Part shown: one piece after another, positions 1-14,629 of the stretch
Position numbering within the stretch: the stretch's first letter is position 1
How the letters are laid out: the number at the start of each line of letters is the position of its first letter
Assembly (NCBI GenBank): GCA_035335645.1
Contig: DAOQMM010000007.1
Location: 283 to 64,282 of the forward strand
DNA length: 64,000 nucleotides
Reading direction: 5' to 3'
Source: Rhodocyclaceae bacterium
GTDB lineage: Bacteria; Pseudomonadota; Gammaproteobacteria; Burkholderiales; Rhodocyclaceae
Translations under genes and position numbers: made by a program
The notes under the pieces: generated by a model
What the model saw: the letters and a program-made list of their open reading frames with translations, nothing else
Database searches by the model: none
Told to the model about the DNA's origin: nothing

Positions 1-1
1 C

Positions 2-967
2 GATATCGTGGTCGTTGCCCGCGACGGCCATTCGGGCGAAGTCACCGCCGGCTTCCATTTTGAATCCAACGTACCGCCCCCGCCGCTGGCGCCCGAGCCT
101 CAAGCCCCGACGGTCCTCTTTGTTCCGCCCCCGCCACCGCGCGTCATCCCGGATGCACCGCCCACCGCGCCGCCCTCGCCCTTCCTGCCTCCCGGCTCGC
201 CCGTGGCGCTGGTCAATCCCAGCTTTGACTCGCCTCCGCCGGTGTCGGCACCCCTTCCTGCGGTCCCCGTGCCACCCGAGCGCCCCGGAAGCGACCGGGC
301 GCCCGTGCTGGCAGCCCCGCCGGACGCGCTCCCGCCCGGATCCTCGCCACTGGTCAGCGTCGGGCCCCTGCCGGACGGTCTGCCGGCTGCGTCAACGCGC
401 GGCGGACTGGTGGTCACCCGCCCCGACCAGGGTGCCTTTGACGTGGTGCCGGCCCGTGCCAACACCATCACGCTTTCGGCAGGCACCTTCGTCGAGACGG
501 TACCGGGCGTGTCGGTCTCCGTCAGTGCCATGCTGGACAACGGTCAGGCCCTGCCCCCATGGATCAGCTTCAACCCCGGTACCGGCACCCTGCTGGTCAA
601 TCCGCCGCCCGGCCTGAAGCGGGATGTCACCATCCGCATCGTGGCCCGCGACCAGAACGGCCAGGAAGCGGTCACCTTCGTCCGGGTGCGGGTAGGCAGC
701 CAACGCACAACGAGCAGCCTGACCCCGGCGGCCGACGCGCTGCGGGAGGTCCGCCCGCAGGTCATGCCCCTCGATGACCTGACCCGTCCCGACGGAAGCG
801 CCGCGCTGCCCGCACGGCCGGTTGCCGACGTGGCGCGTCCGGCCGGGCACACGGGCCGCGACTCCCTCGCGAGCCAGCTGCAACGGGCCGGTCGCGGCCC
901 CGGCGTGTCCGGACGCCTCCAGGCCATCGCCCAGGCCGCCGAGGCCGCCCGCCGTGACGGGGCCTGA
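2..967 (+). CDS. 3'-terminal part (partial) of a large secreted/surface protein with Pro-rich linker and putative Ig/cadherin-like (He_PIG/CADG) domain
   Basis: Frame is open from the window edge (DIVVVARDG...). Contains LPPWISFNPGTGTLLVNPP...IVARDQNG, typical of He_PIG/CADG repeats, and a long Pro-rich stretch; sits directly upstream of HlyD-like genes. Confidence 0.7.
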   Translation, partial: DIVVVARDGHSGEVTAGFHFESNVPPPPLAPEPQAPTVLFVPPPPPRVIPDAPPTAPPSPFLPPGSPVALVNPSFDSPPPVSAPLPAVPVPPERPGSDRAPVLAAPPDALPPGSSPLVSVGPLPDGLPAASTRGGLVVTRPDQGAFDVVPARANTITLSAGTFVETVPGVSVSVSAMLDNGQALPPWISFNPGTGTLLVNPPPGLKRDVTIRIVARDQNGQEAVTFVRVRVGSQRTTSSLTPAADALREVRPQVMPLDDLTRPDGSAALPARPVADVARPAGHTGRDSLASQLQRAGRGPGVSGRLQAIAQAAEAARRDGA

Positions 968-987
968 GGCACAGCCCCCGGAGCCGC

Positions 988-2349
988 ATGAATCCACTCC
1001 TCGTCCTGCTCGAACTCGGTCAGCGTGCCCGCGCCGCGGGAACGCTCCCCGAGCTCGGCTTCCTGCTCGTCAACGACACCCGCCAGCTCATGCCCTACCG
1101 CCAGGCCCTCCTGTGGTTCGAGGGCGAGGGGGTGCGGGCCGTCTCCGGGCTGCTCGCGCCCGAGGCAAACACCCCATTCATCCAGTGGACGCACCGCCTG
1201 ATGGGTCATCTGTCGTCGGCTCCGGTCACGCCCGGTCCGGTCCACACCGTGCATGCGGCGCAGCTTCCCGACGACCTGGCGGCGGAATGGTCTGAATGGC
1301 TGTCTCCCCACGTGTATTGGCTCAGGCTCCCCGCGGATCCCGGCCGCAGCGACGCCCGTGCCGGCGGCGTCCTGTTCGTGTGCGAGGCCCCCTGGGACGA
1401 CACCCTCCATGCCCTGGTCGGCGAATGGATCGCCACCTGGCACCACGCCTGGAACGCCCGCCTGCGTCCGACGCCCTGGTCGGCGCTCGTCTGGCGGCAG
1501 GCGCTGAAGAAGGCCTGGCACACGGACGGCGGCCACCCCTGGTGGAAACGCACCCCTGTCCGCATCGCGCTGCTCATCGCGCTGCTGCTGGTCTGGCCGG
1601 TCCGCCTCACGATCCTCGCACCGGGCGAACTGGTTCCGGTGGACCCGGCGGTGATCCGGGCGCCCCTCGACGGGGTCGTGGCCCAGGTCCACGTGCGCCC
1701 CAATCAGGCGGTGAAGGCCGGCGACCTCCTGTTCAGTTTCGATGAAGCGCCCATCGCCACCCGCCTGGAGGTGGCGCGCCAGGCCCTGACGACCGCGGAG
1801 GCGGAGTACCGCCAGCTGGCCCAGCTTGCCCTCAGCGACCCCCGTTCCAAGGCGCAGCTCGCCACCCTGCTCGGCAAGGTCGCTGAAAAACAGGCCGAAG
1901 CCGACTTTCTGGCCGGACAGTCGGCCCGCGCGAAGGTCACGGCCCCCCAGGACGGCGTCGCGCTCCTCGACGATCCGGCCGAACTGATCGGCAAGCCGGT
2001 GCAGACCGGCGAACGCATCATGCGTGTCGCCAATCCCCGGTCCCGGGAAATCGAAGCCTGGATTCCCATTGGCGATGCCATTCCCCTCGACGACGCGGCG
2101 CCGGTGGATCTCTTCCTGAGCGCCTCACCGCTCTCGTCAGTCAGCGGACACCTCCGCTACCTGGCCCACGACGCCCTGCCACGGCCGGACGGCTCTTACG
2201 CCTATCGCCTGCGCGCCACCCTCGACGACGCGACGGACCACCGCATTGGCATGAAAGGCACCGCCAAGGTTCAGGGACATCGGGTCCCGGTGCTGTACTG
2301 GGTGATGCGCCGGCCCATCGCCAGCATCCGTCAGTTCCTGGCCTGGTAG
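988..2349 (+). CDS. Efflux/secretion periplasmic adaptor (HlyD/MFP family) with N-terminal GAF-like region
   Basis: TM segment followed by biotinyl-lipoyl-like IRAPLDGVVAQVHVRPNQAVKAGDLLF, a coiled coil and VTAPQDG second half-motif. Confidence 0.8.
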   Translation: MNPLLVLLELGQRARAAGTLPELGFLLVNDTRQLMPYRQALLWFEGEGVRAVSGLLAPEANTPFIQWTHRLMGHLSSAPVTPGPVHTVHAAQLPDDLAAEWSEWLSPHVYWLRLPADPGRSDARAGGVLFVCEAPWDDTLHALVGEWIATWHHAWNARLRPTPWSALVWRQALKKAWHTDGGHPWWKRTPVRIALLIALLLVWPVRLTILAPGELVPVDPAVIRAPLDGVVAQVHVRPNQAVKAGDLLFSFDEAPIATRLEVARQALTTAEAEYRQLAQLALSDPRSKAQLATLLGKVAEKQAEADFLAGQSARAKVTAPQDGVALLDDPAELIGKPVQTGERIMRVANPRSREIEAWIPIGDAIPLDDAAPVDLFLSASPLSSVSGHLRYLAHDALPRPDGSYAYRLRATLDDATDHRIGMKGTAKVQGHRVPVLYWVMRRPIASIRQFLAW

Positions 2350-2357
2350 GCGCGCCC

Positions 2358-4460
2358 ATGACCGCCCTTGGTCTGCCCCCGCTGCGTCAGGAGCTGGCGC
2401 TACTGCCCGGCCCCACGCTGCCGGATGGTCAGCCCAGCTGGACCCTCCACGACCCCGCCCGCAACCTGTTCTTCCAGCTCGACTGGCCCACGGTGGCCAT
2501 GCTTCAGCGCTGGGAGATGGGGCCCGACGCCCTCCTCGACGACATTGCCCGGGCGACGACCCTGCACCTGGACGCCTCGCACCTGCAGACGGTGCTGGCC
2601 TTCCTCAAGCAGAACCAGTTGCTGGCGACCCTGCCGGGCCAGGCCGCGGCCATGGCGGAGCAGCTTGCCCGGCGCAAGGGCGGCATCGGACAGTGGCTGC
2701 TCCACAACTACCTGTTTTTCCGCATTCCACTGATTCGACCGGACGCCTGGCTGACCCGCCTGGCGCCCCGCATCGCCGGCCTCTACACGCGCCGCTTCGT
2801 GTGGCTCACCCTGCTGGCCGGCCTCTTCGGGCTGCTGGGCGTGATGCGCGAATGGGACACCTACCGCAATACCCTGGTGGAGATGGTCTCGTGGTCAGGC
2901 GCGCTGGCCTACGGGATCACGCTGATCGGCGTCAAGGTCCTCCACGAGCTGGGGCACGGCTTCACCGCCAAACGGTTCGGCTGCCGCATCCCCACCATGG
3001 GCGTCGCCTTTCTCGTGATGTGGCCCGTTGCCTACACCGACACGAACGAGGTGTGGCGCCTCACCTCGCGCCGTCAGCGCCTGCAGGTGGCCGCAGCGGG
3101 CATCGTCACGGAGCTCGCCATCGCCCTGTGGGCGACCCTGCTGTGGGTGCTCCTGCCGGACGGTCCGGTGCGGATGGGCGCATTCCTGCTGTCGTCCTCG
3201 ACGTGGATCTCCACGGTGCTCATCAACGCCAGTCCCTTCATGCGCTTCGACGGCTATTTCCTGCTGGCTGACGCGCTGCAGATCCCCAATCTGCACACCC
3301 GCGCCTTTGCGCTCGCCCGCTGGGATCTGCGCGAGCGCCTGTTCCACCTGGGCGCGCCGCGTCCGGAGCCGTTTCCTGCCGCGCGCCACGCCAGCCTGAT
3401 CCTGTTCGCCTGGGCGACATGGATCTACCGCCTCGTGCTGTTTCTCGGCATTGCCTTCCTCGTGTACCACTTCTTCATCAAGGCGGTGGGGATCCTGCTG
3501 TTCCTGGTGGAAATCACCTGGTTTGTCGCCCGACCCCTGGCCAGTGAACTGGCCGTCTGGCGGGAGCTCTGGCCCATCCTGCGCACGCGCCCAGCGACCT
3601 GGCGCAGCCTGCTTCTGGCAGCGTCCGGACTGGCCCTGATCCTGCTTCCCTGGCCGGCCCGCGTCGTCCAGAGCGCCGTGCTCTACCCGATCAGCGAACA
3701 GGTGGTCTATGCGCCCCGCAATGCCCAGCTCGTTGCCCGCCACGCTGCACCGGGCCAGGTCGTCGGGCGTGACGCACCCCTCTTCGAGCTGGCCTCCCCC
3801 GAACTGGACCACCGCGAGCGCCAGAACGCCGCCCGGCGCGAGCAGCTCGCCTGGCAATCGGGGGCCTCGGCCTTTGACGCCGAGCAGCGCAAGGACTGGC
3901 AGATCCTGAACGAACAGCTGGGCATCAGCCAGGCCGAGTCACGGACCGTCCAGGCCGACGCGGGCCAGTACCACCCACGCGCGACGATGGACGGCATCGT
4001 GCGCGACACCGATCCCGACCTGCACCCGGGCGACTGGCTCACCCCGCGGGAGGTCCTGGCCCGTGTGACCGGTCGGGGCATCCTGCGCGCCGTGGTCTAT
4101 GTGGAAGATGAAGCGCTGGGTCGCCTGAGCGTGGGAGACCGGGCCGTGTTCATCGCAGACGGTCACGACGGCCCCGACCTGCGCATGCATGTCGTCGAGA
4201 TCGACTCGGACGCCACCCACGTCCTGGGGGAAGCCGAACTGGCCAGCCTCTTCGGCGGCACCGTGAGCGTCCGGGAAAAACACGGCGTCCTCTACCCCGA
4301 ACGGGCGGTCTACCGGGTGGTGCTGCAGAGCGATGCGGAACTTCCCCCGCCCCAGCACCGGTGGCGTGGAACCCTGGCCATCGCCTGCGCATGGGAGGCG
4401 CCCGGCCTGCGCTACGTACGTCAGGCGGCGGCGGTCCTGTGGCGGGAGCTGGGCTTCTGA
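2358..4460 (+). CDS. M50 (site-2 protease family) membrane metallopeptidase fused to HlyD-like adaptor domain
   Basis: HELGH zinc motif, NASPFMRFDG (NxxPxxxxDG) motif, several TM helices, C-terminal lipoyl-like/coiled-coil MFP region. Confidence 0.85.
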   Translation: MTALGLPPLRQELALLPGPTLPDGQPSWTLHDPARNLFFQLDWPTVAMLQRWEMGPDALLDDIARATTLHLDASHLQTVLAFLKQNQLLATLPGQAAAMAEQLARRKGGIGQWLLHNYLFFRIPLIRPDAWLTRLAPRIAGLYTRRFVWLTLLAGLFGLLGVMREWDTYRNTLVEMVSWSGALAYGITLIGVKVLHELGHGFTAKRFGCRIPTMGVAFLVMWPVAYTDTNEVWRLTSRRQRLQVAAAGIVTELAIALWATLLWVLLPDGPVRMGAFLLSSSTWISTVLINASPFMRFDGYFLLADALQIPNLHTRAFALARWDLRERLFHLGAPRPEPFPAARHASLILFAWATWIYRLVLFLGIAFLVYHFFIKAVGILLFLVEITWFVARPLASELAVWRELWPILRTRPATWRSLLLAASGLALILLPWPARVVQSAVLYPISEQVVYAPRNAQLVARHAAPGQVVGRDAPLFELASPELDHRERQNAARREQLAWQSGASAFDAEQRKDWQILNEQLGISQAESRTVQADAGQYHPRATMDGIVRDTDPDLHPGDWLTPREVLARVTGRGILRAVVYVEDEALGRLSVGDRAVFIADGHDGPDLRMHVVEIDSDATHVLGEAELASLFGGTVSVREKHGVLYPERAVYRVVLQSDAELPPPQHRWRGTLAIACAWEAPGLRYVRQAAAVLWRELGF

Positions 4461-4653
4461 GCGATGCCTTCCGGGGGCCGGGCGCCCACAGGCCGTGGTC
4501 CCGGAGCAGAAGGATTCAACCCCGCGTCAGCCGAGATGCGCGGTCGGCCTGATCAGGCTTGGCACGTCGGAACCCGGGCGTTGAGTACCGCGACACCCCC
4601 ACGCAAGCCAGGGTCGCGCCGGCCGATCGCGGGGCGCCGCGGGCCGCCGCGCG

Positions 4654-4956
4654 TCATCCCTGCTCGACGCGGGACTTCAACTCCTTGCCCGGCTTGAAGC
4701 GCACCACCGACTTGGCCTCCACCTGCACCGGCTCGCCCGTACGGGGGTTGCGGCTGATCCTGGCCTCGCGCGCGTGGAGCGCGAACACACCGAAATCCCG
4801 GATCTCGACCCGATCACCGTCCGACAGATGGCGCGCCATGCCATTGAGGATCACGGTGACCGCCTCCTTCACCGTTTCTTCGTCCAGGTCTGGAAACTTG
4901 GCGTGCAAGCGCGCCACCAGCTGCGACTTCACCATCCACCGTTTATCGTCCTGCAT
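4654..4956 (-). CDS. ihfB: Integration host factor beta subunit / HU-IHF family DNA-binding protein
   Basis: MVKSQLV...GDRVEIRDFGVF...SRNPRTGEPVQV...VRFKPGKELKSRV is the IHF signature; AGAGG RBS-like motif before ATG at 4956. Confidence 0.85.
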   Translation of the reverse strand: MQDDKRWMVKSQLVARLHAKFPDLDEETVKEAVTVILNGMARHLSDGDRVEIRDFGVFALHAREARISRNPRTGEPVQVEAKSVVRFKPGKELKSRVEQG

Positions 4957-4997
4957 GACCTCTCTCTCGTGACGGCTTCGGCCCGTCACCTGCACAC

Positions 4998-5552
4998 TCA
5001 CCGACGGGACCCGATGCGAACGACGATGACCGCCCCGGCGGCCGCCTTGTTCCGCAATCCACCATCGCCATCAAATTCGGATCCTGTACGGACCCCCACC
5101 TGTGTATCGGCCATGCCCACGCCACCTTGAACCAGCGTCCGCTGCACCGCCCTGACCCGCTCCGCAAGCAGCACCGGGTTGTAGCGCGTGGCCGGGCGAT
5201 CGCCGAAACCGATGATCGTCACGTGGGCACCCGGGTGATCGCCGACCGCCGCCGCCACCGCGTCCATGAAGCGGGCGAAGGGCTCCGCCAGGGTCGCCTG
5301 GGACGTTTCGAAGGCCGCTTCCGTTTCGAGCTCGAAGCTCACCGACTGCTCCGCGGGCGACACCTGCTCCCGGACGCCCAGCGCCTCGCCCTGCCGGCTC
5401 AGCTCCATCAGCAAGGGCCACCAGGACGAATCCGATGTCCGGATCAAGGCTTCCGTCACGCCCGCCGCCCGGGCACCCCAGCCGACCAGCGCCAGCACCA
5501 GCGCGCACAGCCCCGCGATTCCGCGCCGTCGCATGCCTGCCAACGCCCTCAT
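4998..5552 (-). CDS. Exported protein with divergent OmpA-like C-terminal domain
   Basis: Signal-peptide-like N-terminus; HVTIIGFGD...LLAERVRAVQRTLVQGGV resembles the OmpA/MotB motif; ATGA overlap with upstream antiporter stop. Confidence 0.55.
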   Translation of the reverse strand: MRALAGMRRRGIAGLCALVLALVGWGARAAGVTEALIRTSDSSWWPLLMELSRQGEALGVREQVSPAEQSVSFELETEAAFETSQATLAEPFARFMDAVAAAVGDHPGAHVTIIGFGDRPATRYNPVLLAERVRAVQRTLVQGGVGMADTQVGVRTGSEFDGDGGLRNKAAAGAVIVVRIGSRR

Positions 5553-6778
5553 CCGTTCCGCCTCGGGAGGCGCGCCAGCATCCACGTCACCGGATCCGCG
5601 CCTTTCAGGCGGCGGGCCTCGCCCAGACCGCGACTGCACATCTGAGTACAGATCGGCCCGACAAGTTGCATCAGGGCGATCGCGCCCAGCAGCACATTGG
5701 CCAGGCGCTCGCCGACATCCCCGCTCAAGGGGCCTGCATTGCCCAGCAGCACCAGCGCAATGCTCGACTTGGGCAGGAGCCCGATGCCCAGCCAGTGGGC
5801 CTCCCGCGCGTCCACCCCGAGAGGCCCTGCGGCCGCCCGCAGGGCCAGCATGCGACCGGCGATCCGCGCCAGGGCGAATGCCGCCACCTCACGCCAGTGG
5901 GCAACGATCAGGCCGATCTCCAGCGCCGCACCCGCCAGCACGAAGGTGATCACCAGAAACACCCGCGCGTCCGACGAGATGCGCAGCCCCACCACGTCGC
6001 CCCGCACGTCCATCCAGCGCGTCGCCACACCCAGACTCAGCAGGGTCAGCAAGGGCGACATCTGCACCCCGAGGGGCAGCCCGGCACCGATGCAGATCAA
6101 CCCAAGCAGCAGCAGATGCTGGTGCTCCGGCTGCGGTCCGAGCCAGCGCGCCCCCTGACAGGCCATCGCCGCCAGCGCCGTCCCCAGGGCCAGCGAACCG
6201 GCCACATAGGCCACCGGCGGCGCATGCCCCGCGAGCGACGCGGTCAGCCCTTCCAGCGGCAGGATCGGCAAGGCCACGGCCAATGCCACGAAGGCCGCGC
6301 AGTTGTTGAAGGCCACCAGCGCGAACAGGCGCTCCGTCGCCGGCCCGTCCGCGCCCACGTCGCTGGTGGTGGCGATGGTGATCGCCGGCGACGTGGATAC
6401 CGCCACCGCTGCCGCAAACAGCGCCCCGCCAATGCCGAAGCCCAGAGCCAGCATCACCGCCCCCACCGCCAGGAAGGTTCCGTTGATGTCGGCCAGACTC
6501 AGGCCCAGCAGACGCCTGTCCAGCCCCCGCCCGGGCATGGGCAGGCGATGCCCCAGCTCGAAGAGGATCACGCCGATGGCCAGGTACACAAAAAACTGGG
6601 CGGACTGCAACACGTCCGGCGCCACCCAGCCCAGGCCCGACGGGCCCGCCGCAATCCCCGTCAATACATAACCGGTGGTCCGCGGAAGATTGAAGAGGCG
6701 ACGCACCGCCTCGCCTCCCACGAGTCCACCCAGCAGCAGAATGCCCAGCAACAGGAAGGGCGCAGAATGTAGATCCAC
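5549..6778 (-). CDS. Cation:proton antiporter (Na+/K+:H+ exchanger, CPA family)
   Basis: About 12 hydrophobic segments; TGYVLTGIAAGPSGLG, LFELG and STSPAI motifs; start placed at GTG 6778 (uncertain). Confidence 0.8.
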   Translation of the reverse strand: MDLHSAPFLLLGILLLGGLVGGEAVRRLFNLPRTTGYVLTGIAAGPSGLGWVAPDVLQSAQFFVYLAIGVILFELGHRLPMPGRGLDRRLLGLSLADINGTFLAVGAVMLALGFGIGGALFAAAVAVSTSPAITIATTSDVGADGPATERLFALVAFNNCAAFVALAVALPILPLEGLTASLAGHAPPVAYVAGSLALGTALAAMACQGARWLGPQPEHQHLLLLGLICIGAGLPLGVQMSPLLTLLSLGVATRWMDVRGDVVGLRISSDARVFLVITFVLAGAALEIGLIVAHWREVAAFALARIAGRMLALRAAAGPLGVDAREAHWLGIGLLPKSSIALVLLGNAGPLSGDVGERLANVLLGAIALMQLVGPICTQMCSRGLGEARRLKGADPVTWMLARLPRRNG

Positions 6779-6917
6779 CGCGTACGAGGTCAAAAAAGTC
6801 TGAACACGGCCACGCACACCCCGTCCCGGGACATGCGGGCCACTGGCACTCCACCCCGCTGCGGCGCAGGCGTTGGGCGACATCCGTTCAATGTGCCCGG
6901 ATGGGCTCAATCAGGGC

Positions 6918-6945
6918 TTCACAAATACATTGCAACAAATATAAT
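6918..6945 (+). promoter_or_regulatory. Candidate sigma70 promoter TTCACA-N16-TATAAT for the MarR gene
   Basis: Perfect TATAAT at 6940-6945 and TTCACA at 6918-6923 in an AT-rich patch, 8 nt before ATG 6954. Confidence 0.55.
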
Positions 6946-6953
6946 TGACACCA

Positions 6954-7478
6954 ATGAAAACTGCAATTCCGTCCCCCGCACGGCCGGCGACAGAACCGGC
7001 CCCGGACGCACTGTCCCGGCCCCTCACCCTGGCTGTCCTGAAACAGTTCCGGCTGATCTACGGTTCCGTGCGCCAGCATTTCCGGGAGGTCGAGCAACTC
7101 TGCGGCATCTCCGGCGCGAAGGTGTGGCTGCTCCACGAGATCTCCGGTACGCCGGGCATCGGTGTATCCGAACTCGCCCGCCGCCTCTCCATTCACCAGT
7201 CCACCTGCAGCCAGCTCGTGGACAAGCTCGAAGCCCGCGGCCTGGTGACCAAGCAACGCCTGCCCAGCGATCAGCGCCGCGTCGGGCTCCACGTCACCGA
7301 CACCGCGGCCGACCTGCTCCGACGGATCCCGGGCCCCGCGGAAGGCCTGCTGCCAGACGCCCTACAGGGACTCAGCGAAGACAGCCTGCACGTCCTGCAC
7401 GATCACCTGGCACAGCTCATCGACCAGCTCGCCCGGCTCGACGAACCTTCCGCCGACAAGCCACTGGCCGACCTGTGA
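6954..7478 (+). CDS. MarR family transcriptional regulator
   Basis: Winged-helix pattern GIGVSELARRLSIHQSTCSQLVDKLEARGLV...DQRR. Confidence 0.9.
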   Translation: MKTAIPSPARPATEPAPDALSRPLTLAVLKQFRLIYGSVRQHFREVEQLCGISGAKVWLLHEISGTPGIGVSELARRLSIHQSTCSQLVDKLEARGLVTKQRLPSDQRRVGLHVTDTAADLLRRIPGPAEGLLPDALQGLSEDSLHVLHDHLAQLIDQLARLDEPSADKPLADL

Positions 7479-7540
7479 TCCGCAATCGCAGGTCCCGTCC
7501 CGACATCCCTTTTTTGTCCGTCCCTCGAGAAAGCACCTCC

Positions 7541-8062
7541 ATGAAGCGCACCCTCCTCCCCGTTCTCCTTGCCTCCCTTTGGCTGGGCGCCTGCTCCACC
7601 ACGCCGAAGCCCACCGTCACCGCGGCCGACGCGGCCAGTGACGGCGTGCGCAGCGCACCGGCCACCGCTGGCGCCGTCTCCGCCACCGACGTCGAAGCCC
7701 GCAAGCTCGCCGAACAGCGTGAAGCCCTCGCCAAAAAGAGCGTCTACTTCGCCTTCGACGACTTCACCGTGGCCGAGAAGTATCGCGACGTGATCCGCCA
7801 GCAGGCCGACTTCACCCTCGCCCATGGCGCTGACACCATCGCCGTGGAAGGCAATGCCGACGAACGCGGCAGCCGTGAATACAACCTCGCCCTCGGCCAG
7901 AAGCGCGCCGAAGCCGTGCGCAAGTCCCTCGTCCTGCTGGGCGTGCCCGACGCCCGCCTCGAAGCCGTCAGCTTCGGCGCCGAAAAGCCCCGCGAAAGCT
8001 GTCACGAAGAACACTGCTGGGCCGAAAACCGCCGGGTGGATTTCAACCATCGGGACAAGTGA
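7541..8062 (+). CDS. Peptidoglycan-associated lipoprotein (Pal/OmpA family) paralogue
   Basis: Lipobox LGAC; SVYFAFDD, VEGNADERGSREYNLALGQKRAEAV, SFGAEKP and ENRRV motifs; no tol genes adjacent. Confidence 0.9.
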   Translation: MKRTLLPVLLASLWLGACSTTPKPTVTAADAASDGVRSAPATAGAVSATDVEARKLAEQREALAKKSVYFAFDDFTVAEKYRDVIRQQADFTLAHGADTIAVEGNADERGSREYNLALGQKRAEAVRKSLVLLGVPDARLEAVSFGAEKPRESCHEEHCWAENRRVDFNHRDK

Positions 8063-8352
8063 GCCAGCCGTATCGCGCCCGCTTGACAGGCTTCCCGCGC
8101 GCGGCACATCGGCCGCGGGAAGCGTATCGACAGCGGAAAGGCCGGGACGCCAACCCCCCCTGGGGCGCCAGTCTGCCCGACGAGACGGACCTGGCCCGGC
8201 TCCGCATGGCCGCCCCGCCCTGGGATTTTCCGTCAGTCGGGCGACCCGTCATCCTCCAGCGCGATTCCGGGCACCGGTGCGACGCTGCCAGGGCAGGCCT
8301 CCCCCCGGGAAGGCCGCGGCCACACCGCCGCCCCGCCTGAATGCCCCCGGGC

Positions 8353-8793
8353 TCAGGCGCCAGCCCTGCCGAACACCTGAAGCCCCAGCAGTACCCACAT
8401 CAGCACCAGCACCCCATTGCTGACCGCAAAGACCGCGAAGCGGTGCATCACGTGGTTGTAGGTCACGTGAACCAAACTGTGCGCCATCCGCAGGGCCACA
8501 TAGAGCCAGGCCAGCCCGACCATCGCCGGCGTCCCGCGGCCGATCATCATGGCCATCAGGCAGGCCACGTAGAACAGCACCGGCAACTCCAGCAGATTCA
8601 TGTAGTTGCGATTGGCCAGACGCGCAGGAAGGGGCTCGCTGGCGTCCTCGCCGAGCGCAAAGGCGCGCACATGCACGTCGCCACGGAAGCCCGCACTCAG
8701 ACGCCGGAAAGCGATCAACAGCAGCACGCAGCCCGTCCACCCCGCCAGTGCAAAGACCGGCCCGAGCAGCCCCCCACCCAGATTCGTCCCCAT
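8353..8793 (-). CDS. MAPEG family membrane protein
   Basis: Four TM segments; NRNYMNLLELPVLFY and RMAHSLVH motifs. Confidence 0.8.
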   Translation of the reverse strand: MGTNLGGGLLGPVFALAGWTGCVLLLIAFRRLSAGFRGDVHVRAFALGEDASEPLPARLANRNYMNLLELPVLFYVACLMAMMIGRGTPAMVGLAWLYVALRMAHSLVHVTYNHVMHRFAVFAVSNGVLVLMWVLLGLQVFGRAGA

Positions 8794-9135
8794 CGCTCCC
8801 CCGTCTCATACATCGACCCGAGCGCATCCCGGCGCCGGGCTGAACGACCGCCACGGCACACGGCGGTGCACACGATGCCCCGCGTGTCCGACGACGGCCC
8901 GCGTCGATGCAGGCGCGGTCAGACCCGCGTGTCACCAGGACGCGCTGCACGCTGCCGCCCGATCACGCTATTCACGCATACGGTTGCCTCTATACAACGC
9001 TCCATCCTACCGTCCACCCGGTGACCTGCCCATCTTGGGCGGGCGCATCCGTCCTGGAACGGGGCCTGGCGGTCCGCCCCCCACCGCCGATCGCACCCCG
9101 CCACGCCGGCGCTTCACAACAACGAAAGGATCCCC

Positions 9136-9948
9136 ATGACCCCCACGACGACGGAGCTCGAACAGCTCCTCATGCAACGCTCGCTGACCGACGAGCAGCT
9201 TCAGGCGGCGGCAGAAGCAGCCGCCGATTTCCGGATCCTGCCGGCCGCAACGGTGATCAAGATCGGCGGCCAGAGCGTCATCGACCGCGGCCGCGCGGCC
9301 GTCTATCCGCTGGTGGACGAGATCGTCGTCGCCCGCAAGACCCACAAGCTGCTCATCGGCACTGGCGCCGGCACACGTGCCCGCCACCTGTATTCCATCG
9401 CAGCCGGCCTCAACCTGCCCGCCGGCCTGCTCTCGCAGCTGGGCGCATCGGTGGCCGACCAGAACGCCGCGATGCTGGGCCAGCTCATGGCCCAGCACGG
9501 CATCTCCGCCGTCAGTGGCGCCGGACTCGCCGAGGTGCCCCTGTACATCTCCGAGGTCAACGCCGTGATCTTCAGCGGCATGCCGCCTTACACCCTGTGG
9601 ATGCGTCCCGCCGCCGAGGGCGTCATCCCGCCCTACCGCACTGACGCCGGCTGTTTCCTGATGGCTGAACAGTTCGGCTGCAAGGCGATGATCTACGTGA
9701 AGGACGAGAACGGCCTCTACACCGCCAACCCCAAGACCACGAAGAACCCCACCTTCATCCCCAGGATCTCCGTCGACGAGATGAAGGCCAAGGGCCTTCA
9801 CGATTCGATCCTGGAATTCCCGGTGCTGGACCTGCTCAAGGCCGCCCGTCACGTCCGCGAGGTGCAGGTCATCAACGGCCTCGTCCCCGGCAATCTCACG
9901 CGCGCGCTGGCTGGCGAACACGTGGGCACGATCATCACTGCACGCTGA
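9136..9948 (+). CDS. mosB: Molybdenum storage protein subunit beta (amino-acid-kinase fold)
   Basis: [13 protein letters not shown]...[24 protein letters not shown]...GEHVGTIIT closely matches Azotobacter vinelandii MosB as recalled; 270 aa; GAAAGGA RBS. Confidence 0.9.
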
Positions 9949-9958
9949 GGAATCCGCC

Positions 9959-10792
9959 ATGGCCGAAACCCCCAACACCATCAAGCACGTGGCCTCTCCC
10001 CTCGCGCGCCAGACCCTCCTCGACAGCAGCCTGACCCGCCCCGTGGCCGGCGTGCGCCCCATCCGCCTGCTGCCCTGGCTGCAGGTCGTCAAGATCGGCG
10101 GCCGCGCCATCATGGACCGGGGCGCCGACGCCATCCTGCCCCTCGTCGCCGAGCTCCGCGCGCTGCTGCCCGAACATCGCATGCTGATCCTGACCGGCGC
10201 CGGCATCCGCGCCCGGCATCTGTACGGCGTCGGCCTGGACCTGGGCCTGCCGGTGGGCTCCCTGGCGCCCCTCGCCGCCAGCGAGGCGGGCCAGAACGGC
10301 CACATCCTGGCCGCCATGCTGGCCCCGGACGGGGTCTCCTACGTGGAGCATCCCACCATCGCCAACCAGCTCTCCATCCACCTGGCCGCCGCCCGCGCCG
10401 TGGTGGGCAGCGCCTTCCCCCCGTATCACCACCATGAATTCCCCACCTCGCGCATCCCCCCGCACCGGGCGGATACCGGCGCCTTCCTGATCGCCGACGC
10501 CCTCGGCGCCGCCGGCCTGACCATCGTCGAGGACGTGGACGGTGTCCATGACGCCGACCCCAACGGCCCCGACGGCGCCACAGCCCGGCTGATCCGCGAA
10601 ACAACGTCCGCCGAACTGGCCGACCGGGCCGGCCCGCTGCCCTTCGACCGGGCCCTGGTGGACGTGATGGCCACCGCCCGCCACATCGAAAAGGTGCAGG
10701 TGGTGAACGGTCTCAAGCCGGGCAGCCTCACCGCGGCCCTGCGGGGCGAACACGTGGGCACGCTCATCCATACTGGCGCCCGCCGGGCCTGA
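9959..10792 (+). CDS. mosA: Molybdenum storage protein subunit alpha
   Basis: [13 protein letters not shown]...[15 protein letters not shown]...[11 protein letters not shown] matches A. vinelandii MosA as recalled; paralogous to the upstream gene; GAGGA RBS. Confidence 0.9.
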
Positions 10793-10802
10793 CGCCCACA
10801 CC

Positions 10803-10821
10803 CCGGGTCGTCTAGACCCGG
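10803..10821 (+). terminator. Stem-loop after mosA (probable terminator)
   Basis: CCGGGTC-GTCTA-GACCCGG perfect 7-bp stem 10 nt after the stop. Confidence 0.5.
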
Positions 10822-11178
10822 AAAATTCCTCACTGACGCCATGGGCCGAACCACCCGGCCCGCTCGCAATGTTCTCGTGAGTGCGTCGCCCCACGGCCCC
10901 GTCTCCCACACACCCGTCCAGATCGAACTGCTGCGCCCAGAGGAGCACCCACGCAACACGCCGGAGCGCACCCCCGCCGTCGCGCCATCGCTCTCATTGA
11001 ATGCCGAGCGCACGCCCAGGCGCCCGCGGCCGCCCGACGGACGCCGCGATGGGCCTTTAACCCGGATCGCGCCCACACAACGGGCATCCCCTCGCCGGAC
11101 CGATGCCCGCAATCAATTAACATTTGCTAATATACCAATTCCTATCCGACGCACCATCGGATGCTCCGCATCCTCCTC

Positions 11179-11598
11179 ATGAAAAAACGCTACTGGGCCC
11201 TCCTTGCCCTGCTCGTCGTCATCGCCCTCGATGCCTGGCTGCGCATGCCCGACGCGCGCTCCCGCCAGCTCACTGCTGCACTCGAAGCGCAGGCCAGCCC
11301 GGAGATGAAGGCCTACCCCTATCACTTCCACGTGATGAAGTTCCAGGGCGACACGGCCTGGCTGAGTACGCCGCGCAACGTGGACGTCCCGGCCGCCAGG
11401 GCCATCGCGGCGATGTTTCCCGAGGTCGACACCCACAACCCGGACAACCCGGCCTTCATCGCCGCCCAGCAGCGCCTGGGCGAGGTGCAGGGTCAGGCGC
11501 GGGCGATCGTCCTGTCCCAGTCCGGCGTTGCCCAGGTCCGCTGGGAACTGGACCGGGACTGGCTGACCGCCCACGCCATCGACGTACCGACGCACTGA
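11179..11598 (+). CDS. Hypothetical membrane-anchored/exported protein
   Basis: N-terminal basic residues plus a TM (MKKRYWALLALLVVIAL); GC3-rich codon usage; AT-rich promoter-like region at about 11110-11140. Confidence 0.7.
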   Translation: MKKRYWALLALLVVIALDAWLRMPDARSRQLTAALEAQASPEMKAYPYHFHVMKFQGDTAWLSTPRNVDVPAARAIAAMFPEVDTHNPDNPAFIAAQQRLGEVQGQARAIVLSQSGVAQVRWELDRDWLTAHAIDVPTH

Positions 11599-11748
11599 GC
11601 CCCATCCCCGGGGCGGCCCCGCCACCATTCAGAACCGGTCAATCCGGTCGATAAAGGAGTCCTCCTCCGCCGGCCTGAAGGGCTGTCGCCCCACCTGCGA
11701 CCTCCCGCCGCCGTCCGGACGCTCCCGTATCGACCGAAGGATGGTTCC

Positions 11749-13068
11749 GTGGCATTTCTTTCCCGACTGATGGGCCTTTTTGGGGGGCGCAAGGCCGACC
11801 CGGCGCCTGCGCCCGCGGCCCCGCCACCCGCCCGCAACCCGCGTGCCGCACCGACACCGCCGGTGCCCGCCGAGCCGCGCATCTTCGTCGGCTGGACCGA
11901 GATGATCGACGCCAAGGCGCGCATCGGCGCCTACCTGCTCGCGCCCAACGGGCTGCAGGCCGGTGCGACGGTCTCCGGCCCGCAGTTGCTGGAGGCCCTG
12001 GAGCGGGAGCGCGTCGCGCGCTTTGCCGAGCGCCGGCCGGTGCTCATCCCGATCACGCCGACCCAGTGGGCGGCTGCGGACTTCCGGCGCATTGCCGCCC
12101 CCCTCACCGTCTTCCTGCTGCGCGAGTTGCCCACCCACGCGGCGGCGCGGCAGGCCCTGCTGGCGGAGCTGCGCAGCCATAACCTGCGCGTGGCCCTGGT
12201 GGCGGCGGACTGGACGTCCGACGATCCTGCCTGCGCACCGGACATGCTCCTGGTGGATTTACGCTCGGCCCCCCTGGCGCGCATCGAGGCCCAGGTGCAG
12301 CAGATCCGCCGCACCCACCCCCGCATGGTGCTGGCGGCGGAGAACCTGGACTCCTGGTCCGAGCACCGCCTGTGCCAGTCCCTGGGTTTCGCCTACAGCC
12401 TGGGTGCCTTCACCACCACTGCCGACGAGCCGGATGAGACGCGGCAGATCTCCGGCAGCCGCCTGGTGGTGCTGGAGCTCCTCAACCTGCTGCGCACCGA
12501 AGCCCCGCCGGCTCAGATCGTCGCCACCGCCAAGCGCGATCCGGCCATCGTGCTGCGCCTCCTGGCCCTGGCCAATTCGCCCGCCTACGGGCTGGCCAAG
12601 CAGGTCAGCAACCTGGAAGAGATGATGATGGTGCTGGGTCGCGACGCCCTCTACCGCTGGCTGGCCGTCGCCCTGTTCCGCCTCGGCCACGACGACGGAC
12701 GGGACCAGACCCTGCTCGTGGTGGCCCTGGGCCGGGCCGGCTTCCTGGAATCCCTGGTGCTGGAATCGGAGCGCGCCACCCGCGACGAGCTCTTCCTGGT
12801 GGGCCTGCTGTCGGTCATCGACAGCCTGCTCGGTCAGCCCATGGACAAGGTGCTGGACCGCATGACCCTGCCCCCCGCCGTGACGGCCGCCCTGCTGCGC
12901 CGGGACGGGCCCTACGCGCCCTATCTGTTCCTCGTCACCGCCCTGGAACGTTGCCGCCTCGATCAGGCCGCGATGGTGGCCGAGGCCCTCAAGATCGACA
13001 CCGCCCACCTCATCGACTGCTACAGTCAGGCCATGGAATGGGCCACCGACGAGCTGATGCGCGACTGA
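11749..13068 (+). CDS. EAL-HDOD domain protein with degenerate EAL domain
   Basis: C-terminal HDOD pattern (KRDPAIVLRLLALANSPAYG...LFLVGLLSVIDSLLGQPM); N-terminal EAL-like region lacks the EAL motif. Confidence 0.8.
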   Translation: MAFLSRLMGLFGGRKADPAPAPAAPPPARNPRAAPTPPVPAEPRIFVGWTEMIDAKARIGAYLLAPNGLQAGATVSGPQLLEALERERVARFAERRPVLIPITPTQWAAADFRRIAAPLTVFLLRELPTHAAARQALLAELRSHNLRVALVAADWTSDDPACAPDMLLVDLRSAPLARIEAQVQQIRRTHPRMVLAAENLDSWSEHRLCQSLGFAYSLGAFTTTADEPDETRQISGSRLVVLELLNLLRTEAPPAQIVATAKRDPAIVLRLLALANSPAYGLAKQVSNLEEMMMVLGRDALYRWLAVALFRLGHDDGRDQTLLVVALGRAGFLESLVLESERATRDELFLVGLLSVIDSLLGQPMDKVLDRMTLPPAVTAALLRRDGPYAPYLFLVTALERCRLDQAAMVAEALKIDTAHLIDCYSQAMEWATDELMRD

Positions 13069-13080
13069 TGATCCCCCGCC

Positions 13081-14337
13081 TCAGGGGCGGGACGCAGCAT
13101 GTTCCGCCACCTGATCCGCCAGGCGCCGGGCACGGCCGGCCAGATGCAGTACGAACAGCACCAGCACCACGCCCTCTCCCACCAGCGTCGGCCCGGCCCC
13201 GAGCGCCGCGGCGATCACCCCCGCCAGCAAGCCGCCCAGGGCGTCGAAACCGAAGCGTGCCGACGTGAAGAAGGACACCACCCGGCCCCGCAGCCGGTCT
13301 GGCGCGATGCTCTGCAGCAGCATGTTGATGCCCACGTTGCACACCGAGATCCCGAATCCCAGGCCCACCATCGCCGCCAGCGCCACCCCGAAGCGCGTTG
13401 TCAGCCCGAAGACCAGCAGCGCCGCCGCGCTGATCGCGGTCCCTGCGCACACCGCCTTCACCAGCCCCGGCACCGAGCGCCGCGTGGCCAGAAAGACCGT
13501 CGATCCGAAGGCCCCACACCCCGCCGCCCCCCACAGCCAGCCCAGGGTGCGGGCGTCGCCGCCGAACACGTCGCGGGCAAACACCGGCAGCAGCACCGCG
13601 TAGGACGAAGCCGTCAGGTTGAGGGCGACGAGGATCACGATCAGGCTGCGCACCAGCCAGGTCTCCCAGGCATAGCGCACCCCTTCCCGGAAAATGTGAC
13701 CCATGGAGCCGGCCGCCCGCGGCGTGGCGCTGTCCTTCACCCGCCACACCGCCACGAAGAGGGCCACGAAGGAGCAGGCGTTGAGCGCGAAGCACGCCGC
13801 CTCCGAGGTCCACCCCAGCAGCAGACCGGCGATGGGCGGCCCGACGAAGCGGCCGGAGTTGAACAGCATCGCGTTGAGGGCCAGCGCATTGGGCAGATCC
13901 TCCCGCCGCGCCACAAAGGCCCCGATCAGGGACTGGCGCAGGGGCGTGTCGAAGCTGTTGAGCACCCCCACCCCGGCCGCCAGGATCACCAGCATCGTTG
14001 GCCCCACCGCCTCCGCCCAGGTCAGCCCGGCCAGGATCAGCGCCTGGGCCACCAGCAGCACCTGCACGCCCAGCAGCAGGCGGCGCTTGTCGTGGCGGTC
14101 GATCCACGCCCCCGCCAGCGGGCCGACCAGCAACTGGGGAATCAGCGCAGCAAAGGCCGTGACCCCCAGCAGCGCCGACGAGCCAGTGAGCCGATACACC
14201 AGCCAGGCCATCGCCACCTGCTGGATCCACGACCCCAGGATGGACACCGCCTGGCCGAAGAAATACAGGCGGAAATTGCGATGGGCCAGCGCCCGCAGGG
14301 GACCGGGCAGACGGGATGAGGGTTCGACGGATGACAT
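13081..14337 (-). CDS. MFS transporter (H+ antiporter/macrolide-efflux-like)
   Basis: About 12 TM; HRNFRLYFFGQAVSILGSWIQQVA and GAWIDRHDKRRLL motifs. Confidence 0.9.
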   Translation of the reverse strand: MSSVEPSSRLPGPLRALAHRNFRLYFFGQAVSILGSWIQQVAMAWLVYRLTGSSALLGVTAFAALIPQLLVGPLAGAWIDRHDKRRLLLGVQVLLVAQALILAGLTWAEAVGPTMLVILAAGVGVLNSFDTPLRQSLIGAFVARREDLPNALALNAMLFNSGRFVGPPIAGLLLGWTSEAACFALNACSFVALFVAVWRVKDSATPRAAGSMGHIFREGVRYAWETWLVRSLIVILVALNLTASSYAVLLPVFARDVFGGDARTLGWLWGAAGCGAFGSTVFLATRRSVPGLVKAVCAGTAISAAALLVFGLTTRFGVALAAMVGLGFGISVCNVGINMLLQSIAPDRLRGRVVSFFTSARFGFDALGGLLAGVIAAALGAGPTLVGEGVVLVLFVLHLAGRARRLADQVAEHAASRP

Positions 14338-14629
14338 GGAGGACAACGCGAGGCACCGCACGTCGCCGGAACGGACGACGCACGAAAGTGCGCGATTGTG
14401 CCTGAGTCGCAGTCGGCCGGCACGACCACGGAGGACCTTGACGTCACGGTCCGCGAGGATCCGCCACATCCTCGCGGCCGTGTCGCCTGCGGGCAGCGAC
14501 GGCTTCACGCGGGGGCCGTCGCCCCACCGCCCGAATCGCCCCTGCGGTCCTTTGCTCCGGCCGGACGAGATCCGCACATCGCCAATGGAGAGGACTGCAT
14601 CCCGGCACGACCGGGACGCAGTCTGCCCT

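Follow-up and report, generated by a model that had tools for sequence, protein, structure and literature searches.

Classical type I secretion needs an ATP-binding cassette (ABC) transporter, a membrane fusion protein and TolC and, to our knowledge, every described TolC-dependent machine has an energized inner-membrane transporter of the ABC, RND or MFS kind. We analyzed a stretch of 64,000 nucleotides from a Rhodocyclaceae bacterium (assembly GCA_035335645.1, 208 contigs, genome size 3.66 Mb), referred to here at its full length as the window, which starts at base 283 of contig C7 (DAOQMM010000007.1). Positions 2-4460 of the window consist of three co-directional open reading frames (ORFs) on the forward strand, separated by gaps of 20 nt and 8 nt, and are the distal half of a five-gene cassette that encodes a TolC-like protein, a short adaptor, a giant cargo protein, an adaptor with an extra cytoplasmic domain of predicted GAF fold (the GAF-adaptor) and a fusion of an RRE (PqqD-like) domain, an M50 site-2-protease (S2P) and another adaptor domain (the M50-adaptor). 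On balance we consider it probable, if by a modest measure, that this cassette is a leader-guided, protease-coupled, TolC-dependent export machine for its own giant protein.

The type I systems that export giant adhesins or RTX proteins (HlyBD-TolC; LapBCE with LapA; SiiCDF with SiiE) resemble the window locus in that a TolC-family channel and adaptors occur beside a giant, repetitive, surface-type protein with Ig/cadherin-like domains, and in that the adaptor folds match MacA, EmrA and HlyD. They have an ABC transporter and one adaptor, whereas the cassette has three different adaptors and no ABC, and their secretion signal is C-terminal, uncleaved and usually placed after RTX repeats, whereas the signal of the window cargo is N-terminal and probably cleaved. 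Unlike these systems, the cassette has an S2P protease and an RRE domain built into it. The nearest functional analogy would be the export of colicin V by CvaAB-TolC and of other peptides by peptidase-containing ABC transporters (PCATs). There, as in the module proposed here, the inner-membrane component works with an adaptor and TolC and includes a protease domain that reads an N-terminal leader and removes it on the cytoplasmic side. PCATs, however, use a C39 cysteine peptidase and ABC domains and have a peptide substrate, whereas the window has a zinc S2P with an RRE domain, no ABC and a cargo of thousands of residues.

Two further groups share single domains with the M50-adaptor. The M50 leader peptidases of ribosomally synthesized and post-translationally modified peptides (RiPPs) gave the best curated sequence matches for the M50 part, with scores far under their cut-offs: 148.8 bits to daptide_HExxH (NF041824, cut-off 300), the nearest curated family, and 37 bits to YydH/LiaK (NF058609, cut-off 225). 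Structurally, the N-terminal domain was matched best by the lasso-peptide B1 proteins and PqqD, among them B1 structures solved with bound leader. In contrast to the RiPP M50 systems, the protease of the window is fused to a TolC-type adaptor, and no RiPP precursor or tailoring genes are present. RseP and SpoIVFB have the catalytic core fold, the HExxH motif and the NxxPxxxxDG motif in common with the M50-adaptor, which differs from them in lacking PDZ or CBS domains, in having an RRE domain and an adaptor fused on either side of the core, and in a likely substrate segment that is not a transmembrane helix.

A related module was predicted, in silico only, by Kamneva, Poudel & Ward 2015 (PLoS One 10:e0129066, PMC4452313), as a SecA_DEAD-associated 'type I secretion-related' module. 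It comprises a GAF-HlyD protein, a Peptidase_M50/HlyD membrane protein, a further HlyD/biotin-lipoyl adaptor and sometimes an OEP, with no ABC. The GAF-HlyD, M50-HlyD and further adaptor components are common to the cassette of the window, and two such modules exist elsewhere in this genome. The published module has a secondary SecA_DEAD gene, whereas the cassette has none, and neither a giant cargo, an N-terminal leader nor an RRE domain is described in that paper. The GAF-adaptor is also shorter in the window, with 453 aa against 588-615 aa in the SecA-containing modules of this genome. A preliminary description of the window had called the architecture widespread and mechanistically uncharacterised. 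More than 7,000 homologues of the M50-adaptor were found, and the literature searched gave only the in-silico description of this related, SecA-containing module. The module of the window may prove to be a separate secretion pathway, should export without a motor be borne out.

The M50-adaptor (P0003; 2358..4460, +) is a protein of 700 aa that was characterized by Pfam, by NCBIfam comparison and from its predicted structure. It matched Peptidase_M50 (PF02163) at 37.8 bits (cut-off 27.2) and HlyD_3 at 41.4 bits, and its AlphaFold model has a predicted local distance difference test score (pLDDT) of 85. Foldseek searches of the Protein Data Bank (PDB) with whole models returned adaptor matches only, and the domain-level matches reported here therefore come from the wide structural search with VIA. 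The resemblance of the N-terminus to a PqqD/RRE-like fold, which the preliminary description had proposed, is supported by the predicted structure at Z scores of about 10. Residues 5-91 (2370..2630, +), predicted to be cytoplasmic, aligned with a lasso-peptide B1 protein carrying its leader (6jx3_B; Z 10.2, root mean square deviation 2.5, 81 of 85 residues aligned), with TbiB1 (5v1u_A, Z 10.0) and with PqqD (5sxy, Z 8.7), and 81-83 of the 84-94 residues of these RRE targets were covered. The three-stranded sheet and three-helix winged-helix fold of RRE domains is present in the model, with strands at residues 14-18, 27-32 and 37-41 and helices at residues 43-50, 56-66 and 73-85. The two paralogues of the M50-adaptor in this genome both match Pfam PqqD above the cut-off (26.8 and 31.8 bits), and the window protein aligns with the paralogue on contig C3 through the PqqD-matching domain of the latter. 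The protein-language-model neighbors of the N-terminal domain (Atlas features) were likewise PqqD clusters. The only match obtained with the profile of this domain against PDB sequences, to a V-ATPase, was rejected as spurious.

The S2P catalytic core (aa 177-309; 2886..3284, +), delimited by PF02163 and VIA, aligned with RseP (7w6z, Z 10.3), SpoIVFB (8vjl, Z 9.9) and MjS2P (3b4r, Z 8.2). Both catalytic motifs are intact in the sequence, namely the zinc-binding and catalytic HELGH (aa 196-200; 2943..2957, +) and the NxxPxxxxDG motif with the third zinc ligand (N290...D298-G299; 3225..3254, +), and residues H196, E197, G199, H200, N290, P293, D298 and G299 were invariant in 32 aligned homologues. 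The periplasmic adaptor domain (aa 422-688; 3621..4421, +) matched MacA with an E value of 2e-10 in Foldseek and, in VIA, 4dk1 (Z 14.0), EmrA (13.6) and HlyD (5c21, 11.8); across the MacA, MexA, EmrA, AcrA and HlyD structures the Z scores were 12-14. Seven helices are predicted in the M50-adaptor, and their number, together with the distribution of Arg and Lys (positive-inside), suggests an N-in, C-out topology. In this topology the adaptor domain would be periplasmic, and the cytoplasmic face would be the site of the RRE domain and of the HExxH and DG motifs.

The GAF-adaptor gene (P0002; 988..2349, +) encodes 453 aa, matched HlyD_3 (67 bits) and Biotin_lipoyl_2 in Pfam, and is extended at the N-terminus by about 190 aa; its AlphaFold model has a pLDDT of 88. 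Homologues were 54-71% identical among the 120 listed of 2,244 matches. The predicted structure identifies the extra domain as a GAF domain, which would be cytoplasmic (aa 1-162; 988..1473, +). In the wide VIA-align search it aligned with phytochrome GAF domains (Z 13.7) and with the GAF domain of PtsP (3trc, Z 12.6), with 147 of 168 residues aligned, and many GAF structures scored between Z 12 and 13.7. The window protein itself had no Pfam GAF match; a weak GAF_2 match was found in the orthologue of genome G228, and GAF matches were found in the paralogues, one of them over the cut-off (PF01590, 25.8 bits). The domain is followed by a stretch rich in Arg and Lys, a single transmembrane helix (aa 193-211; 1564..1620, +; Kyte-Doolittle 19-residue peak of 2.43) and a periplasmic adaptor body with an alpha-hairpin (aa ~205-441; 1600..2310, +), which matched MacA (3fpp, E value 4e-15) in Foldseek and 4dk1, MexA and EmrA at Z 15 in VIA.

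Of the giant cargo gene, the window holds the 3' end (2..967, +), encoding the last 321 aa, and the ORF is open to the first base of contig C7, so that the C-terminal part amounts to 415 aa when the 282 nt of C7 before the window are counted. The 5' part of the giant was found at the 3' end of contig C10 as a frame of at least 3,996 aa that is still open where the contig ends (C10:45649-57636), which brings the cargo to a total of more than 4,400 residues. It begins with a match to ESPR (PF13018, 50.7 bits, cut-off 25; aa 1-45, C10:45649-45783), followed by a DUF4347 domain (171 bits). Directly upstream of the giant is a short adaptor, whose true start, at a signal peptide, gives about 264 aa, and further upstream a TolC-like OEP gene of 518 aa (C10:43268-44824; OEP 117 bits, and 44.8 bits to TIGR01844, under its cut-off of 225). 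These are preceded by an unrelated ammonium transporter, a TetR regulator and an acyl-CoA dehydrogenase. The preliminary description had reported the Ig-domain protein end, the HlyD adaptor with its extra N-terminal domain and the M50-HlyD fusion with both motifs, all of which were found where it placed them, and had seen neither ABC ATPase nor TolC in that part of the window; none is present in positions 1-14,600. It had also pointed upstream for TolC, ABC and DUF4347 genes. The TolC-like gene, a third adaptor and the DUF4347 N-terminus were found there, and no ABC transporter gene is present in C10:25000-57638 or C7:1-16000. An ABC transporter immediately upstream of the giant is thus ruled out by the gene content of C10.

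The order of genes across C10 and C7 follows from complete records, which show one five-gene order. In the complete genomes of Pseudomonas benzenivorans and Variovorax sp. SRS16 an OEP gene, a short adaptor, a DUF4347/He_PIG giant, an N-extended adaptor and an M50-adaptor occur in identical order, with different flanking genes. The same five genes are present on an Escherichia coli IncHI1B plasmid from the feces of a healthy person (NZ_CP060066.1:20836-38214), where they encode a 3,669-aa Ig-like giant, TolC, an adaptor, HlyD and HlyD/M50 and are flanked by the insertion sequences IS1 and IS5. Copies that match the query with the same score and identity were found on 18 Escherichia and 8 Citrobacter plasmids, as well as in Hafnia. 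A further three genomes, which belong to other families of the class (GC content 0.39-0.64), have the genes for the adaptors, the M50-adaptor and a DUF4347 protein arranged in other orders, and in one of them (G228) the OEP gene is not adjacent to the cassette. Across the seven loci examined, in this genome and six others, no ABC, RND, MFS or SecA-type gene was found in the cassette. That the same five genes occur without an ABC transporter in complete genomes and on the E. coli plasmid agrees with the preliminary description, which had proposed an export module lacking a visible ABC ATPase. Its interpretation of the M50-HlyD protein as the inner-membrane component or the processor of the substrate is supported as well, to the extent that sequence and predicted structures allow; that the module exports and cleaves its cargo, we infer. 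A direct joining of C10 and C7 by sequence overlap failed, as no overlap exists and the register of the repeats indicates that at least ~40 aa of one unit are absent, and a tblastn search revealed no further contigs of the assembly with the cargo repeat. In the complete genome G056 (C1:1342-12133), a 272-aa ORF contains DUF4347 and is immediately followed, in the same direction, by an ORF of 3,311 aa; the cargo there may be split or frameshifted.

ESPR is otherwise a motif of the signal peptides of type V secretion. In the first 300 aa of the cargo there is no 19-residue window with a hydropathy of 1.0 or more, so that it has no Sec-type signal despite the ESPR match. The ESPR segment is not followed by a hydrophobic Sec core; a LEPR-type leader follows instead. 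Relatives carrying ESPR likewise have no hydrophobic core, and this arrangement of an ESPR-like segment before the leader, which is new here, was found in 26 of the 150 nearest cargo clusters (about one sixth). The leader, ALEQRFMFDGAA, lies about 65 residues into the cargo within R-P-L-A-L-E-Q-R-F-M-F-D-G-A-A, and its 13-residue core is identical in the three orthologous cargos of this genome, Pseudomonas and Variovorax, while variants occur in the cargos of genomes G313 and G228 and of the E. coli plasmid. The NCBIfam family LEPR-XLL (NF012209, cut-off 17 bits) matched the Variovorax cargo (17.8 bits) and the giant on contig C51 of this genome (17.3 bits); no match was reported for the N-terminus of the window cargo itself. 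When 1.84 billion representatives were scanned by HMMER with the first 300 aa of the cargo, 13,300 relatives were recovered, and 116 of the 150 nearest cluster representatives have the leader motif. In a logo of the 110 windowable representatives the L, E, R, D and A positions are 99-100% conserved, with basic residues upstream; the motif starts at a median position of residue 35, and DUF4347 begins about 60 residues after it. When ORFs of 250 aa or more in all six frames of this genome were scanned, the motif was found four times, at the N-termini of the three giants that adjoin M50-adaptor genes and in one unrelated Rieske-type enzyme.

The C-terminal stretch of the cargo has proline-rich linkers and then a final He_PIG domain (putative Ig or dystroglycan-type cadherin-like; PF05345, 24.3 bits against a cut-off of 24; aa 149-229, 446..688, +), which is also terminal in orthologous cargos. 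Beyond it a conserved tail, GR-x-SL-x-x-QL ... GRL-A-... AAR (854..964, +), emerged from an alignment of four cargo C-termini from distant loci and families, in which G163, R164, L167, Q170 and L171 are invariant. This tail is new here and might serve as a further element for recognition or retention. The cargo contains two copies of DUF4347, near the N-terminus (C10:46072-46536) and internally (C10:52111-52557). An alignment of DUF4347 sequences showed an invariant His and a near-invariant pair, H-G ... Y-G-C. The two sequences without the second His are also without the Cys, and this joint loss hints at a His/Cys catalytic dyad, perhaps of a caspase/CHAT-like kind. The DUF4347 profile matched chain G of 9qpe in the PDB, titled 'DUF4347 domain-containing protein'; designed TIM barrels among its PDB matches were judged to be spurious, and an Atlas search with DUF4347 found nothing.

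The M50-adaptor homologues are typically 55-60% identical and occur in Betaproteobacteria-type lineages and Pseudomonas, and the GAF-adaptor shows a similar pattern. Carriers of the cassette include Azospirillum, Cupriavidus metallidurans CH34, Magnetospirillum gryphiswaldense MSR-1 and Pseudomonas, and the M50-adaptor is found on plasmids of Escherichia (18 records), Citrobacter, Azospirillum, Cupriavidus, Burkholderia and Magnetospirillum. A survey covered 400 genomes, sampled evenly across about 240 families of the class. DUF4347 was present in 36 and not found in 18 of the 54 genomes with an M50-adaptor, while among the 346 genomes in which no M50-adaptor was found it was present in 10 and not found in 336 (odds ratio 67, uncorrected for phylogeny). 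In many of the 36 genomes that have both, they lie within about 15 kb on one contig.

The cargo begins with a conserved non-hydrophobic leader, in which basic residues are followed by A-L-E-x-R-phi-phi-F-D-G-A-A and which is preceded in this case by an ESPR-like segment. We propose that this leader would be bound by the cytoplasmic RRE domain of the fusion. The fused S2P core, with its HExxH and DG motifs predicted to lie at the cytoplasmic side, would then remove the leader, and the chain would exit via a duct of three different adaptors, one of a soluble or signal-peptide type, one GAF-anchored and one fused to the protease, docked on the TolC-like channel. The second adaptor, through its cytoplasmic GAF domain, might gate or regulate the process. 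Candidates for the driving force would be co-translational feeding from the ribosome, the proton-motive force, extracellular folding and the housekeeping SecA. Co-translational feeding is attractive given an N-terminal signal, more than 4,400 residues and no motor, but this is pure speculation. A stronger form of the proposal, in which this is a distinct secretion pathway and not a variant of type I, with the RRE domain reading a LEPR-type leader, the S2P removing it and the giant passing, possibly co-translationally, through a three-adaptor/TolC duct with no dedicated ATPase, is one that we put forward tentatively and regard as having clearly less than an even chance.

One alternative is that the motor is borrowed, either a SecA-like ATPase of the paralogous modules or the housekeeping SecA, possibly with SecYEG, and that the cassette provides only targeting, leader removal and the duct; we regard this as unlikely. 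This genome has three SecA_DEAD genes, the housekeeping secA and two truncated copies (706 and 664 aa) that each lie inside a paralogous module, beside a PqqD-M50-adaptor and a GAF-adaptor; no SecA_DEAD gene is present at the locus of the window, and the two SecA-like genes belong to modules on contigs C3 and C51. The SecA-containing module is the one predicted in silico by Kamneva et al. 2015 (PMC4452313), and of the 29 sampled genomes with only the distant type of M50-adaptor, 16 have a second SecA-like gene, adjacent to the M50-adaptor in 14. Against a dedicated SecA-like paralogue stand the 24 sampled genomes of the window subtype (an M50-adaptor matching that of the window at 218 bits or more). 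Exactly one SecA_DEAD gene was found in 17 of them, fragments only in two, none in one and extra weak matches in three, leaving G374 as the only genome with a genuine second SecA-like gene; nor is there one near the cassette in P. benzenivorans, Variovorax or the E. coli plasmid. The window module is thus a distinct SecA-less subtype, quantitatively separated from the SecA-containing type, which is new here. The idea that a SecA-like paralogue is generally needed in trans was rejected for this subtype on the same count (17 of 24), a rejection that does not extend to housekeeping SecA. Against the housekeeping SecA stands the lack of a hydrophobic signal segment in the cargo.

A second alternative is an ordinary type I system with its ABC transporter encoded elsewhere, which the adaptors and TolC would serve while the M50 protease only trims the substrate. 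This genome does have an LssB-type type I ABC above the cut-off (C1:94710-96794, 994 bits) and HlyB-like ABCs on contigs C86 and C105, the P. benzenivorans cargo contains HemolysinCabind (RTX) repeats, and the cargo C-termini have the conserved tail in common. Because this genome encodes ABCs of this type, the case against an ABC in trans rests on other genomes. In three of the five high-quality genomes of the window subtype (G056, which is a complete genome of 2.2 Mb, G228 and G326) the cassette is present and no HlyB/PrtD/LssB-type ABC was found above the cut-off; none of the seven loci has an ABC in or beside the cassette, which in the case of the E. coli plasmid travels as one unit between insertion sequences. 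Further, the conserved signal is N-terminal and paired with an RRE domain, and the last 321 aa of the window cargo contain no RTX repeat match in Pfam. Taken together, these results make an ordinary type I system improbable.

We give similarly little credence to a role after or beside export, in which the module would see to the regulated release, the turnover or the quality control of a surface adhesin, in the manner of LapG/LapD with LapA, or would signal by regulated intramembrane proteolysis. S2P proteases classically act in signaling or quality control, the presence of a GAF domain points to control of activity by a ligand, and a response-regulator GGDEF-EAL gene precedes one of the paralogous modules. 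The RRE domain and the active site are predicted to be cytoplasmic, however, ahead of any translocation step, it is difficult to account for three TolC-type adaptors and a TolC-like gene of their own if nothing passes through a duct, and the cargo has no other recognizable export signal. That the cassette is instead a tripartite efflux pump or a RiPP-type exporter of a small product, with the giant as an incidental neighbor, is very improbable: among curated M50 families the closest are RiPP leader peptidases, albeit under their cut-offs, and RRE domains are typical of RiPP pathways, but no small precursor or modification enzyme was found in the cassette at this locus or in Pseudomonas, Variovorax and the E. 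coli plasmid, the linkage to leader-bearing giants persists across gene orders and distant families, and the leader motif is essentially confined to giants in this genome.

Several points weigh against leader-guided export by the cassette. The M50-adaptor gave no match to Pfam PqqD (PF05402), either directly or in a whole-genome scan, and the same was true of 30 close orthologues, so that the assignment of its putative RRE domain comes from the predicted model and from the paralogues. The locus is split over two contigs, and the linkage of the TolC half to the M50 half is based on synteny in other genomes. The type I ABCs and the two SecA-like paralogues of this genome, all unlinked to the window locus, could help in trans here, and no component of the cassette is an obvious inner-membrane protein-conducting channel. 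DUF4347 was lacking from 18 of the 54 M50-adaptor genomes, although some of these genomes are incomplete and some cargos, such as the giant on C3, are without DUF4347. The literature searched contains no experiment on secretion, cleavage or complex formation by the module, nor a functional study of LEPR-XLL or DUF4347.

If the proposal of leader-guided export is correct, a leader-reading intramembrane protease would take the place of the transporter, a new way of moving proteins of several thousand residues over two membranes, and the arrival at the surface of the large LEPR-XLL/DUF4347 class of giant proteins would be explained. It would also give RRE domains and S2P proteases a role beyond RiPP maturation and signaling. 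Since the carriers include E. coli and Citrobacter plasmids and Pseudomonas, the question is testable in tractable strains. Giant adhesins in activated sludge may matter for floc and biofilm formation.

This one genome contains three parallel leader/machine systems, each with its own leader variant, which is new here. Each of the two paralogous modules is composed of a GAF-adaptor, a PqqD-M50-adaptor, a SecA-like gene and an adaptor, beside its own giant gene, and their M50-adaptors are 29-33% identical to that of the window. The module on C3 (C3:40952-83504) starts with a giant ORF of about 11,740 aa that has the leader L-E-P-R-V-L-L-D-G and no DUF4347, followed by a GAF-adaptor of 615 aa, a PqqD-M50-adaptor of 715 aa, the truncated SecA of 706 aa and a short adaptor of 302 aa. 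A two-partner-secretion pair (a ShlB/FhaC-type gene and a 1,484-aa ORF) adjoins it on the opposite strand. On C51 (C51:3-16000) the order is the response-regulator GGDEF-EAL gene, a GAF-adaptor of 588 aa, a PqqD-M50-adaptor of 713 aa, the SecA-like gene of 664 aa, an adaptor of 468 aa with a C-terminal Cds6_C NTF2-like domain, and a giant (a 4,571-aa open frame) with the leader L-E-A-R-I-L-Y-A-A and then DUF4347. Weak SecA_DEAD-like matches also occurred inside giant frames of two genomes that carry the SecA-less cassette too, at G056:C1:1316628-1317260 (62 bits, frame of 3,513 aa) and G365:C1:22539-23108 (30 bits, frame of 2,546 aa); these frames may encode giants that have a SecA-like domain within them.

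Near-identical sequence to window positions 988-4460 (0.89-0.95 of sampled words) was present in 15 activated-sludge, wastewater and bioreactor metagenomes from seven studies dated 2015-2024, suggesting that the host is a recurrent sludge bacterium. In three wastewater or aquatic metatranscriptomes, short contigs of low depth match all three genes, and one spans the junction of cargo and adaptor with no mismatch; neighboring genes have similar coverage and DNA carry-over is possible, so that this is weak evidence of transcription. Within positions 1-14,600 of the window, the genes 3' of the fusion encode HU, a Na/H exchanger, an OmpA-family protein, MAPEG, amino-acid kinases, HDOD and MFS proteins. 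The sole downstream gene of an ABC, RND, MFS or SecA type is an unrelated, divergent MFS_3 gene that lies 8.6 kb away.

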